From the IMG/VR virus record IMGVR_UViG_3300035497_000412: a DNA stretch of 64,000 nucleotides; one strand, written 5' to 3'. The position numbers and the translations under genes were made by a program. Below the pieces are notes generated by a model. The model did no database searches. It was not told the origin of the DNA and saw only the letters and a program-made list of their open reading frames with translations. Shown one piece after another: positions 33,975 through 38,552 of this stretch. The DNA comes from a virus. Lineage: Duplodnaviria > Caudoviricetes. Position 1 is the first letter of the stretch, and each line of letters starts with the position of its first letter.

Positions 33975-36900
33975 TTAATTGAAAAAAGCCCATTCTTTTG
34001 CATTAAATTTCTTATGCTTCTTCTTACTATCTTCTTCTTGTTTTATATAATACAATCCATAACACAATGAGGAAAATTTATCTTTTCCGATTCGTTTATT
34101 AGATCGCTTTAAAATAATATTAATACCTTCTGCTTCTTCTTTAAGGTTTAACAACTCTTCTTTTAAAATATCTGTTAAAACAAAAGGCATCAAATAAGAA
34201 TCTCTTTGTTCTGGAGTCATATTCTGACCCAATCTAGTACCCATTAAGCTATTTTTAGCCAATCGTGCTTCGCGCAAGAATTTAATCTTTCCACTTTCAA
34301 TCTAACTTTTAATAGTAGAAAAAGCTTCAGTGTTAACAGGAGCATTTGCTTTCATAATATAAATAGCTTCATCTTCTGTATCATTAGTTCTGAATCTCTT
34401 ATATTCTTGCGTGGCATCATCTTGCGTTCCACCATAAACTCCAAATGGAGGATAATATTCACCACCTCGGTCTTGTGATTTAACCATGTAATCAATAAGA
34501 CCAATGCCCAGGCCGTTTCCGTCTATCACAACTCGTTTTGCCTTATATTGGTAAAATAATTTTTTAATCGTAATAGCCTAATCCTCCATGTGCATATCTT
34601 CATACACAAAGATATTCACTAAATTCTTTATTGAAGAGCCTTGCGGCTATGGTGTTACTTTCAATGCACAAATAACTGTTTGGTCTCCTTTGCGGCCTAC
34701 GTCTACAGATAGTATATAATAAGCCTATGAAGAAGACCTCCCTGAATATTCATATTCAGGCTTTTGTAAAATTCTATTTCTATCAAACTTTTCACCATCA
34801 AAGAAAGCATCCTCAACTGTTCCAGTCCATTTACTTTCCATTTTTCCTTGCGATATTTCGCTAATATCTCTCTGGCTTTCACCAGAAGGTGAGATCATAT
34901 CATCTACATAACGCCACACGAAACCTTTATATGTTTTAATTTTACCACGACAACATTCACCAATATGCGCATGGCTTTTAAGACCGAGCGCACGAGTAGC
35001 AGTTCCAACAGATGGATAAGTTGTAATATACTTTCCATTTAAATCATATTGATTTACCGCTTTAGCTCTTCCATTGTTTTTATAATTCTTAACTTCACCC
35101 AACTCTGAAGAATAAGACCAATAAAAGTTACCGCTTAAAGCTTTAACATCTTTATTTAACTCTTGTAAAATAATCGAATAATTTACTTTAGTAGCTGCGG
35201 AAGCATCGGCCGCAGTCAAATATTCAGCAACTAATTGTTTATCTTTATTAAAGCAAAAAACGTGATTATATTTTCTTAATTCATTTTCTAATGCGTCTTC
35301 TGAAGTAGCCCATTCAAGATTATCTACACAATTATTCAATTTGTTGCCATCAATATGATTAACTTGGTCCTCTTTATCATCTGTCTTTTCAATAAAAGCT
35401 TCTGCTACTAGTCTATGGGCGTAACATCTTTTTTTCTTTCCAGAAGGTAAAGTCAAATTATAAGAAAAATAACCATTTCTTTCATTTACCTGCCCTTTTA
35501 GATATTTGTTAGTGTTTGAATTAAAACATTTTCCGTCTTGTGTGATATAATATGAGGTACTGATATTATCAATAATAATATTTTTCATAATAACAACCTT
35601 TCGTTATTTTTGTAGTATTGCGCTGCTTAACGCTTTGTTAAGTCTTGATCGTTGAACCTTCTCCTTGCGGAGCTTGGCTGCTGATTGTCCAATCCAGTTT
35701 ATTTTTAAAACATTCGTGCGGATAACTGCACTGTAGTTAAACTGGCTCTAAGGAGTTCCCAGCAATTCACAATATTTAAAGAGTACAAAAGTCTATACTC
35801 TCGTTCAAAGGATGCTTCATTAAACGTTGTATCTTTCTTTAATCCCAGAATGAATGATTTAGATTGGAGGCCAGTTACTACTGGTCATTTTTTTTTGATT
35901 TAATGGACTATATCATCATTAACAAATTTCCACTTATAATTATTGCATTTTTTTTGTTTACTTAAACATACAGCACTGATACCTTTTCTATTAGAATTGG
36001 TCTATCTGGCCGCATCAGAAACGCTATCAAATATTTTAATTATTTCATCTTGTTCATTCAACTAAGCAACTCTTTTTTTTCTACCTCTATCTTCTGGAAT
36101 AAAATCTTCTTCCCATTTCCAAATAAAACCTCCGGAAGTTTTCCTTGTCCCATTAGCAACCTCTCGTATTTTAGAAGCTCCTGTAGCTCTTACAGCATCA
36201 GTTAAGCTCTAAAAAGTTTGCAAGTATTCTCCTTGTAGATTATATTGCTTTACTGGTCTTAATATGTGAGCATGGTTTAATCCATTTCCCCATGCGTGTT
36301 GATTATTTTCTGAAGAAGTATTCCATTCTAAATTTTCTAAACGATTATTTTCTTTATCCCCATCTTTATGATTTACGGTTAAATTTTCCATATTTTGAAC
36401 TGGAATAAAATTTTCAGCCACTAATCTATGTCCAGTTATATAGATAGGATTACCATTTAAATATAAATTAAATTCTATATAACCATTCTATTTCTAATTT
36501 CCTTTTATTAATTCCTTGGTAGAGTAGTTTCTTACCTATCCATCATCTGAAATTTCATAATTTAATATTTGATCTTTATAATTAATTCTTTTCCACATAA
36601 ATTTTTACAACTCCTTTCTAAAGTATATAAAAATTATTCTGGAACATGGAATGGAAGTTGTCCATTTTTTTTTGTTAATGCGAAGCGCTTCAGCCAGTGA
36701 TAAAATCTGGCTTACAGGATTACACTCATCATCCTTAGTCTCTACACTTTCTTTTACTCATCATAAAAGCTTAGCACGGGATAAAGTTATCTCTCTTCCC
36801 CCGTTAGCCCAGTTGGCTTGGACACCGCTTTTTCTTGCGTTCACTTCGTTTTAGGCGCACACCACTCTATGCGCCATGTGCCTCCCATAATATAAGCTTC

Positions 36901-38552
36901 ATCTGGTTTAACTATCATTTGAGTTAAAGTTTGAATTAATTTATCATAACTATAAGTATTTTTATAGCCTGCGGTAGTTCCTTTTATTCCACACAGCTCG
37001 CTATTTCTATGTGCGTTCTCTTATGAACTGCTATATATTCCTATATAGAGTAGACTATATCTTCACCTTCAACTTTACTTGTTAAGGGCCTCCCGCTTCG
37101 ACTCGCTTGAGTCTACGTCATTCGACTAGTCGTTGAACCTTCTCCTTGCGGAGCTTGGCTGCTGATTGTCCGTTCTGGACTTCCCAGCAATTCAAGAGGT
37201 TTGCTTTTGCTAATTTCTTAACAATGATACTAATTAAATTAATATAAATTTGACTTTGATTTAATGTTTCAGATTCTTGTGTTGTACCATCCATGCACTA
37301 ACGAGACACGTTCATTAGCAATTATATTGGACTATATCATCAACTATATAAAAATAGCTGTCACGCGCTTCGATCGGTGATAAAATCCGATCTACAAGAT
37401 TACACTCATCATCTTTAGTCTCTACACTTTCTTCTATTCAACATAGAAGCTTAGCACGGGATTCTCTTTTGAAGTTCCCCGTTAGCCCAATTAACTTGGA
37501 CACCCCTTTATCACGGGTTCACGCAATTTTCTTTAGTGATTCACACCACTAAGCCCCCTAATGTCGAGGGATAATAATTTGCTAGAGCATATCTTGGTCA
37601 ACACCAACGCATTCTTCTATAACTCCTGCGTGTTTGCGCAAGCCACGAGAACTCTCTCTAGCTGCAACGTTTTCAATATCTGAACCATTTTTAAGAATAA
37701 TTTTACACTTATCTTTACCCATTTGGGTCTAACCTCGACGCCAGTCTATTTCTCGTTTAAACGCTGGTATCTTAGCACAAATATCATTAACTTTCTCTTG
37801 CAAGATTTGAGAACTTTGTTCTTTTCCTCCAGCAGTAGTAAACTAATGAGACCCTGGATATAAAATTCCTCTAATTAATAAAATCATAACTGAAAGGAAA
37901 GATTTTGAATCTTTATATTCTAATAAGTTCGCAACGCTTATTACGTTCTCCAATGAACTGCTTATATTTTCATATAAGAATAGACTATATCACGCTTTAT
38001 TATGTTAATAAAGCCCTCCTTTTTCGATTTAAGGGGTTCTCACCCGCCGCATTAACTTCGGCCCTACTCCTATTGCTTCTATTTTTATTCCGAGGAAGCT
38101 TTCTCAGGATAGTCGTTGAAGTTTATAAATAAATCATTTATATTACCTGCGGATTCCCATATTAAAGTAACTTAGGGTTCCCGCATTTTAAGAGGTTTGT
38201 CCACAGAGATCATATGAAGCTCTCTGATTTGGCGCAATTCAATTTACGCTCTCGGATATACAGCATAAACATATTTATATCTCATGCCTATTCTTAAAAA
38301 TACCCTCTAATAAAAAAATAAATTAAAGGTTATTTTTATTTCTTTTCCGTCATGATTCTTATAATAAATGCCATCTTCTTTTTCATAAGTTGGCTTGCCA
38401 CCAGTCTACATAAAATCTACGAATAAATCAGGATATTCTCTCCAAAAGGCAAAGTATTGCCGCAAGACAGGCTTAATTGGGAGGATGCGTTCTTCGGAAA
38501 TGCCAATCTTCTTTTTATTGTTATTAATTAATAATAAATCTTCTAACGCCAT
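33975..38552 (-). CDS. terL: terminase large subunit, 597 aa, 6 exons (38552-38246, 37910-37567, 37318-37242, 36979-36869, 35885-35795, 34838-33975), code 15
   Basis: Spliced product has Walker-A-like PRAYSKS, Walker-B GVIEE, motif-C YITTA, REYESKW, and nuclease SVDVG, IDGNGLG, KDKFS. Exon total 1794 nt. Confidence 0.92.
34725..35588 (-). CDS. intron HNH/NUMOD1-type endonuclease fused in frame to terL exon 6 (287 aa in code 11; 537 aa to 33975 in code 15)
   Basis: HRLVAEAF..VNHIDGNKLNN..NLEW plus NUMOD1-like repeats; reads ..SQGKM|ESKWTG into the exon. Confidence 0.85.
   Translation of the reverse strand: MKNIIIDNISTSYYITQDGKCFNSNTNKYLKGQVNERNGYFSYNLTLPSGKKKRCYAHRLVAEAFIEKTDDKEDQVNHIDGNKLNNCVDNLEWATSEDALENELRKYNHVFCFNKDKQLVAEYLTAADASAATKVNYSIILQELNKDVKALSGNFYWSYSSELGEVKNYKNNGRAKAVNQYDLNGKYITTYPSVGTATRALGLKSHAHIGECCRGKIKTYKGFVWRYVDDMISPSGESQRDISEISQGKMESKWTGTVEDAFFDGEKFDRNRILQKPEYEYSGRSSS
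34839..35794 (-). mobile_element. group I intron terL-5 (956 nt) with HNH ORF lacking its own stop
   Basis: P1 GAGUAU/GUACUC, P10 ACUUUU/GAAAGU, covarying P7 GAUCA/UGAUC, terminal G 34839. Confidence 0.92.
35886..36868 (-). mobile_element. group I intron terL-4 (983 nt) with HNH ORF in P8
   Basis: P1 GGCGCAU/GUGCGCC, P10 UGGU/ACCA, AUCCCGUGCUAAGC, GUAGAGACUA and GAUAUAGUC core. Confidence 0.92.
35900..36598 (-). CDS. intron-encoded NUMOD4-HNH-NUMOD1-type homing endonuclease, 232 aa (code 15)
   Basis: MWKRI..YEISDDGQV..HRLVAENF..VNHKDGDKENNRLENLEWNTSSENNQHA, several TAG. The C-terminus overlaps the intron S element. Confidence 0.85.
36980..37241 (-). ncRNA. group I intron terL-3 (262 nt)
   Basis: AAUUGCUGGGAA, AAUCAGCAGC, GUUCAACGACUA, AAGAUAUAGUC core; junction restores YI/TTAG. 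Confidence 0.9.
37319..37566 (-). ncRNA. group I intron terL-2 (248 nt)
   Basis: P1 CCCU/GGGG, P10 CAUUAG/CUAAUG, same core type as terL-4. Confidence 0.92.
37911..38245 (-). ncRNA. group I intron terL-1 (335 nt)
   Basis: P1 GCGU/GCGC, P10 UGAAU/AUUCA, UUCAACGACUA and GAUAUAGUC core; interrupts the Walker-A-like motif. Confidence 0.92.

Follow-up and report, generated by a model that had tools for sequence, protein, structure and literature searches.

Homing endonuclease genes are expected to pass through a cycle of invasion, fixation, decay and loss. In fungal mitochondria, the open reading frames (ORFs) of organellar group I introns, encoding LAGLIDADG or GIY-YIG endonucleases, are fused in frame to the upstream exon. 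In the Bacillus phages SPO1 and SP82, I-HmuI and I-HmuII are HNH endonucleases of the nicking type, encoded in a phage group I intron like the gene described here. Endonuclease ORFs that overlap the ribozyme core are known from group I introns (Hausner, Hafez and Edgell 2014, PMC3984707, Fig. 2b). In Bastillevirinae Bacillus phages, terL (the gene of the large terminase subunit) contains several group I introns with HNH/NUMOD endonucleases that overlap conserved intron elements (PMC11878797). The locus considered here is the fifth group I intron of terL in a stretch of 64,000 nucleotides (nt) from a Caudoviricetes gut phage (IMG/VR record IMGVR_UViG_3300035497_000412), hereafter the window. 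Its HNH/NUMOD1 endonuclease ORF has no stop codon and runs in frame over the 3' splice site into exon 6, which encodes the TerL nuclease domain. In a limited search of the literature, no phage intron ORF that continues in frame into a downstream exon was found.

The stop-less reading frame of terL intron 5

The exons of terL were placed with the intronless TerL of Enterococcus phage H1 (591 amino acids, aa) as ruler, which divides the gene into six exons on the minus strand. The features around intron 5 are the following.

35885-35795, minus strand: terL exon 5 (...TGLQSKSFILGLKKDTTFNEASFEREY), aligning with residues 274-304 of the intronless TerL and ending with the U of the 5' splice site
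35794-34839, minus strand: the fifth terL intron (group I, 956 nt), whose ribozyme core is split into a 5' and a 3' half by the endonuclease ORF
35780..35786, minus strand: internal guide sequence GUACUCU, which pairs with the end of exon 5 in P1 and covaries in relatives
35646..35650, minus strand: 5' strand of P7 (GAUCA), pairing with UGAUC at 34897-34893
35597..35602, minus strand: Shine-Dalgarno-like GAAAGG, 8 nt upstream of the ATG of the ORF; the string GAAAGGTTGTTATTATG is kept in relatives
34839..35588, minus strand: intron-encoded part of the ORF (250 codons), in which I-HmuI-like DNA-binding strands at the N-terminus are followed by the HNH domain, whose helix is degenerate, by NUMOD1 and by a tail encoded by the ribozyme core
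34893..34901, minus strand: J8/7 and 3' strand of P7 (GAUAUGAUC), located by eye, where the ORF reads D-M-I
34848..34850, minus strand: CAA (Gln247) where relatives have the TAA stop of the endonuclease; the window reads ATATCG CAA GGAAAAATG/GAA
34838-33975, minus strand: terL exon 6, encoding the whole RNase H-like nuclease domain of TerL; it contains four TAG codons in frame and ends with the TAA stop at 33977-33975
34725..34727, minus strand: first TAG of exon 6, a stop under genetic code 11 and Gln288 under code 15

The endonuclease starts at ATG 35588. An earlier sequence-only reading had assigned it a ribosome-binding site (RBS) of its own, had found neither a stop nor a TAG in its intron part and had described its in-frame entry into the nuclease exon, all of which was borne out. 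GAAAGG stands before the ATG, and none of the 250 intron codons is TAA, TGA or TAG. The last of them is an ATG (34841-34839) whose G is the terminal G of the intron, and exon 6 continues at 34838 with GAAAGT (E-S-K-W). The nuclease motifs SVDVG and IDGNG both lie within exon 6. The two product lengths given by that reading were likewise reproduced: 287 aa under code 11, ending at TAG 34727-34725, and 537 aa under code 15, where the frame passes four TAG codons and stops at TAA 33977-33975. Since there is no stop on the excised intron, a properly terminated product can only come from RNA that joins the intron to exon 6.

The final ~20 codons of the intron part (DDMISPSGESQRDISEISQGKM) double as J8/7, the 3' strand of P7 and the P9 hairpins. 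Downstream of CAA, the window retains an intron tail of 9 nt. At the same terL site, the related locus L005 reads ...ATATCG TAA GATAGTG/GAATCG, and in the DNA of L005, L021 and L022 the string TCG TAA is followed by 7-9 nt up to the splice site.

Side observations were also made on this part of the intron. The derived tail AAGGAAAAATG (34839-34850, minus strand) places an ATG on the last three intron bases, in frame with exon 6. It stands just behind AAGGA at a short spacing (3 nt), and the other fused relatives have no such ATG; in principle, it might serve as the start of a free TerL nuclease domain on unspliced RNA. A sigma-70 scan of 33.8-36.1 kb for an intron-internal promoter returned 9 sites, against 10.3 in shuffled sequence, and no such promoter was assigned. 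A regulatory hairpin over the endonuclease RBS was considered and dropped, as its -9.4 kcal/mol is no better than that of shuffles (z -1.1). The lack of TAG in the window endonuclease was also discarded as a meaningful signal: the gene has few Gln codons, and the copies of its relatives do carry TAG.

The exon 5/6 junction (...FEREY/ESKWTG) agrees with three intronless TerL proteins, namely those of Enterococcus phage H1, phAss-1 and MT836163. In phAss-1 and MT836163 the protein is continuous over ...REY/ES.W..., which fixes the junction. Exon 6 matches residues 305-591 of the phage H1 TerL with 41% identity (tblastn, expectation value (E) 1e-63), and its fold matches include the nuclease domains of RB49 gp17, G20c TerL and T4 gp17. 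The Pfam family Terminase_6C is matched with 20.8 bits, slightly below the cut-off of 22.6.

For the intron itself, the Rfam model RF00028 gives a partial match at 35615-35777 (35.3 bits, E 4.6e-6, model positions 47-158). This lies below the gathering threshold of 50, since the core is interrupted by the 750-nt ORF. P1 has seven base pairs (AGAGUAU/GUACUCU) with the U.G pair at the 5' splice site, and it covaries in relatives, where a guide GUAUUCU is combined with the exon end GAGAAUAU. P10 is formed between GAAAGU, the first six bases of exon 6, and ACUUUU, located immediately 5' of the guide; relatives combine GAAUCU with AGAUUU. P7 occurs in three covarying versions in all, the two others being GACUA/UAGUC and GAACA/UGUUC, and the 3' end of the intron (...AAAAAUG) has the terminal G. 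The covariation of P7, P1 and P10 implies that these ribozymes are under selection, including those of the stop-less lineages, in which they appear to be intact.

A sequencing or assembly artefact, or a misplaced splice site, is hardly credible as an explanation of this frame. It could draw on the database protein P0002, which matches the window endonuclease exactly through residue 246 and then ends, on a single JGI contig of 155,986 bp. However, five retrieved contigs (four from JGI samples, one from a Logan run) match the window with 99.8-100% identity and contain the same junction. The five contigs stem from five samples, which excludes the assembly error that the sequence-only reading had allowed for. 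The splice sites are moreover set by intronless homologues as well as by the covarying P1, P7 and P10. The 287-aa product is recorded on seven contigs. P0002 remains as a stop-bearing twin, and it suggests a stop/no-stop polymorphism (CAA versus TAA) within one phage species, its stop being deduced from the end of the protein.

Motif loss, stop loss and selection

The endonuclease part matches Pfam HNH_3 with 34.3 bits (cut-off 24.8) and NUMOD1 with 32.0 bits (cut-off 22.8). Its best match is I-HmuI (PDB 1U3E), both by sequence (E 1e-9) and by fold (E 6e-10). The general-base His (H78, in NHIDGN) and the structural Asn are kept, as NHIDGNKLNN...NLEW aligns with D74-H75...N87 of I-HmuI. The lesion lies further on, in the helix of the HNH domain. 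There, the window reads LEWATSEDALE, and a four-residue deletion takes both the N and the H of the ENxxH motif (SED----ALE versus SENQKHA in relatives). The missing end of this motif had been noticed from the sequence before, by comparison with the endonuclease of terL intron 4 (terL-4); there, as in ~90% of the relatives, the four residues that the window lacks include the N and the H of ENxxH. The N of the family helix corresponds to the metal ligand N96 of I-HmuI and the H to its N99; the N is retained in 116 of the 123 clusters examined and the H in 109. The window lacks the metal-binding Asn/His of the I-HmuI type, an Asp standing in its place. AlphaFold2 (72-row alignment) predicts two confident modules for the fused protein, with a pLDDT (predicted local distance difference test) of ~90 for residues 1-230 and a linker of residues 231-260 that is predicted to be disordered.

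The family comprises 3711 matches of similar length; 123 clusters (61-75% identity) were examined. Nearly all of the best 120 of the 3711 relatives end in the 3' core of the intron, at 240-251 aa. A seemingly early-stop class of relatives, 240-243 aa long and ending in ...SES or ...SEN, was rejected, as the DNA of L020, L021 and L022 shows that gene calling under code 11 had ended these proteins at a TAG; with code 15, the usual TAA is reached in L021 and L022. In L019, by contrast, the early TAA is real. As a side observation, the Q of ESQRD in the P9 region of L020, L021 and L022 (corresponding to window 34870-34872) is a TAG. Code-11 callers shorten such endonucleases by ~8 aa, and that of L020 by 63 aa; about 21 of the 123 clusters end in this way.

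The sequence-only reading had asked whether related phages keep the stop-less frame, a stop before the 3' splice site in relatives being taken as evidence against it. The frame is kept in only a few: most relatives, and the protein P0002, have a stop before the 3' splice site, whereas four clusters besides that of the window keep the in-frame stop-less ORF. Together with one out-of-frame case, six stop-less clusters were found among the 123, each without the conserved N, the conserved H or both.

Window: helix SED----ALE, stop-less, in frame
P0123: helix EESQSQ, stop-less, in frame
P0124: helix ENRQQT, stop-less, in frame
P0125: helix SASDAM, stop-less, in frame
P0044: helix ENQQRA, stop-less, in frame
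P0083 (L020): four-residue deletion removing N, stop-less, out of frame

A search for longer proteins recovered three of the in-frame fusions, namely P0123 (532 aa), P0124 (538 aa) and P0125 (532 aa). P0044 is fused in frame over 318 aa, up to the end of its contig. All in-frame fusions occur at the same terL site, and each of their introns ends in a G directly before GAA. A junction-restricted search of proteins of 157-503 aa returned only the cluster of the window and P0044 as fused. A scan of IMG/VR with the endonuclease protein found no relative, and a scan of metagenome contigs with an alignment of the window and L011 (the locus of P0123) found only two loci, each of them truncated before its 3' end is reached. 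In P0044 (L004, 2441-2488), the fused ORF departs from TerL after VDVGRKG and ends 15 codons later, at the contig end, as if the nuclease exon of that phage were interrupted by another intron. In L020, the TAA was changed to CAA as in the window. Its tail has 7 nt, however, and the read-through is out of frame and extends to 300 aa. The stop can thus be lost without any fusion being formed. In a tree of the 123 clusters, fusions arise at least four times, and the window and P0123 are sisters (support 96).

The loss of the stop is tightly associated with the loss of the motif. It occurred in 6 of the 17 clusters with a degenerate motif and in none of the 106 with an intact one (Fisher p 3e-6; p 2e-5 with the sisters counted once), where the p-values are rough, as the rows are related and 21 of the ends are known from protein calls only. 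In a phylogenetic sign test of fusion versus motif loss, the independent pairs are too few for significance to be reached.

It could be argued that the protein has remained an active homing endonuclease of the ordinary kind, its active site being a variant with Asp in place of Asn96 of I-HmuI, and that the TerL extension is irrelevant baggage. The general-base His and the structural Asn are indeed retained, and the position of the family His is an Asn (N99) in I-HmuI itself, so that loss of the His need not end activity. Low ratios of nonsynonymous to synonymous divergence (dN/dS, see below) would fit as well. However, the deletion takes two residues that are conserved in nearly the whole family, and if the motif did not matter, the strict coupling of its loss to that of the stop would be left unexplained. 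We consider this alternative unlikely.

The explanation that we prefer, though only tentatively, is that of a late-stage homing endonuclease gene, for which the chimera of degenerate HNH, NUMOD and TerL nuclease (HNH*-NUMOD::TerL-nuclease) would be a tolerated by-product and not a designed isoform. In this case, the I-HmuI-type HNH/NUMOD homing-endonuclease gene, nested between the core halves of terL intron 5, would already be fixed, and the loss of its stop would be one step of its late life. The usual TAA is CAA here, with the 9-nt tail that keeps the exon frame. A ribosome that starts from the endonuclease's own RBS on intron-holding RNA would cross the splice site into exon 6, and its read-through would end at the terL stop only, yielding 537 aa with TAG as Gln. 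Spliced RNA would still yield the normal TerL. The stop would be maintained only for as long as the free endonuclease is of importance; after loss of the catalytic helix, it could disappear as well. Translation across the junction between the intron and exon 6, the loss of endonuclease activity and the lack of a function of the chimera are each presumed in this scheme. The rarity of the fusions, the stop-bearing twin, the out-of-frame L020 and a relaxed L014 branch all fit the by-product reading.

Selection was analysed on the endonuclease part. Between the window and L011, codons 1-229 differ with a dN of 0.14 and a dS of 1.7, giving a dN/dS of 0.08. In a three-point decomposition with eight outgroups, both terminal branches have a dN/dS of ~0.1, compared with 0.2-0.3 for ordinary pairs of the family; as dS is saturated, these branch values are coarse. 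The DNA-binding segments are the most constrained (dN/dS 0.08 for NUMOD and 0.05 for the middle segment). In the part of the ORF that overlaps the ribozyme, dS is 0.19 and dN/dS 1.4, which indicates a constraint on the RNA and not on the protein. The derived tail CGCAAG(G)AAAAATG is common to the window and L011, and L011 carries, relative to the window, a +1 indel in the loop of a P9 hairpin and a -1 indel four codons on, which together keep the frame.

Several of these results weigh against a mere by-product. The endonuclease part of the stop-less sisters shows no signs of decay, its branch dN/dS being at or below that of the family. The two sisters reside in diverged phages and yet share the derived tail, while the indels of L011 preserve the frame. 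A weaker point is the excess of in-frame forms, with five of six stop-less clusters where a third would be expected by chance (p 0.02; p 0.045 for four of five origins), since detection favours in-frame forms. If selection does act on the stop-less protein, then the chimera would be its only stable form available.

The same observations could be explained by selection for the chimera, which we regard as possible, if less probable than a by-product. The retained DNA-binding modules (N-terminal strands and the NUMOD1 helix-turn-helix) would then work tethered to the TerL nuclease. As possible roles, a site-directed nuclease for homing or for the initiation of packaging may be envisaged, or else a regulator of terL expression or splicing. 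Beyond the purifying selection, the common tail and the frame-restoring indels, such a role would agree with five in-frame clusters out of six that all lack the conserved N or H, and with the presence of the fusion in L011, where it forms 532 aa under the standard code. The two well-folded modules of the AlphaFold2 model, joined by a linker of ~30 residues, would make the chimera physically plausible. On the other hand, there are only five in-frame clusters among thousands of relatives, and both P0002 and the out-of-frame read-through of L020 count against a selected fusion. The fused L014 branch has a raised dN/dS of 0.26-0.8, compared with 0.11-0.17 in its stop-bearing sister, although saturated dS makes these estimates rough. 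Furthermore, the T-to-C change recurs in L020, so that the common tail could partly be homoplasy.

A more specific form of this idea is a swap of catalytic domains. Here, the HNH site would have been given up, and the sequence-reading modules would deliver the RNase H-like nuclease of TerL to a specific DNA site, the purpose of which would be intron homing or the first packaging cut. Such a swap would explain why the stop is lost only together with the motif, why the indels compensate each other and why the DNA-binding parts are under purifying selection. Even so, we consider it improbable. The retargeting of the terminase nuclease, as proposed in the sequence-only reading, would be a minority possibility beside the preferred by-product.

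Genetic code and the terL surroundings

The late genes of the window lie on the minus strand from ~1 to 43 kb, and their long ORFs exist only when TAG is read as Gln; one of them has 2827 aa and 65 TAG codons under code 15. Among named phages, those with the closest terminases are Enterococcus Schiekvirus-like phages, SPbeta-type Bacillus phages and phAss-1, a phage of the gut. This last relative is listed under a 'code 15 clade', and the in-frame TAG codons expected of such a phAss-1-like phage, recoded for TAG as Gln, are present in the late genes. In alignments, the TerL exons match their homologues across their TAG codons. Within the 64-kb window, ARAGORN detected no tRNA genes, including any suppressor tRNA(CUA).

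The recoding is not uniform among the relatives. In the phage of L011 (JGI 3300043006, 42,974-bp contig), seven late genes are free of in-frame TAG, compared with as many as 10 per gene in L005 and L014, so TAG recoding differs between close relatives. In the block from terL to the capsid gene, L011 and the window share the gene order with 60-80% protein identity, and their neighbouring core proteins have diverged by 20-40%.

The endonuclease of terL intron 4 (35900-36598, minus strand) was observed to contain HNH_3, NUMOD1 and NUMOD4, with an intact ENNQH and six in-frame TAG codons. Its stop follows directly after the 3' strand of P7, and the protein ends in ...DDIVH*. Because of its six TAG codons, this endonuclease can be made only when TAG is read as Gln, and the selfish gene has thus adopted the recoded late code of the phage.

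These data bear on the code-dependent isoform suggested in the sequence-only reading. It is formally true that the product has 287 or 537 aa depending on the code, but it is probably not a biological switch. TAG as Gln is needed in every terL exon, and the endonucleases of terL-4 and of the relatives carry TAG as well, which means that these genes are read in the recoded state. Conversely, the fusion of L011 occurs in a phage without in-frame TAG, and the fusion is hence independent of the genetic code. For annotation, a warning follows: gene callers set to code 11 truncate these ORFs at TAG, and with code 15 a 530-aa 'HNH-terminase' protein is reported.

The remaining exons of terL, all placed by alignment with TerL homologues, are located upstream.

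about 38528-38247, minus strand: terL exon 1
37908-37567, minus strand: terL exon 2
37318-37241, minus strand: terL exon 3
36978-36871, minus strand: terL exon 4

Between the terL exons, Rfam reports group I introns; in this stretch, two matches are above threshold, one is weak and one is the partial match in intron 5. The only public metatranscriptome run with part of the stretch has contigs that cover 36.9-38.6 kb only. One contig from this gut metatranscriptome joins 37909 to 38245 and skips 335 nt, corresponding to the removal of terL intron 1. This fits the exon 1/2 boundary predicted from the homologues and the Rfam match at 37961-38255; it is a single contig (n=1), and DNA may be present in the RNA library behind it. 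A megablast of the terL region against the phage collection gave only a 79-nt match to the intron core of a Xanthomonas phage.

Comparison with known systems

With thousands of copies at one terL site, single steps of the homing cycle become visible. One such step is the loss of the catalytic helix in tight linkage with the loss of the stop, and the chimera that results has survived in at least one pair of diverged phages. A chimera that is only tolerated would mark dying endonucleases. If it is selected, it would represent a natural case in which a selfish DNA-binding module recruits a host nuclease via intron read-through, with a bearing on the origin of new site-specific nucleases.

A cooperation of HNH proteins with terminases has been described before. 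As Kala et al. reportedly found in 2014, HNH proteins such as HK97 gp74 assist the terminase in cos phages. There, gp74 is a separate, catalytically active HNH protein that acts in trans with the large terminase. The organellar intron ORFs resemble the window in that the exon-intron fusion can only come from unspliced RNA, and degenerate endonucleases found there can retain a second role, as in the maturases. They differ in that the upstream exon is used, other endonuclease families are involved, the setting is an organelle, and the fusion is the rule and not a rare variant.

Closer to the present case are the group I introns of PMC3984707, where, as in the window with its J8/7, P7' and P9, the 3' end of the ORF doubles as part of the core. 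The available part of that text describes the overlap with the core and does not mention reading over the 3' splice site, which the ORF of the window crosses. In the Bastillevirinae, terL has two or three introns and the standard code is used, compared with five introns in the terL of the window. In the text of PMC11878797 the terms 'in frame', 'fused' and 'downstream exon' do not occur, while the ORF of the window is fused to the downstream exon. The closest enzyme is I-HmuI, which has the same order of N-terminal DNA-binding strands, HNH domain and C-terminal NUMOD-like helix-turn-helix. I-HmuI, however, has its own stop and an intact D74/H75/N87/N96, whereas the endonuclease of the window lacks the equivalent of N96 and the His conserved in its family, has no stop and runs into the downstream exon.

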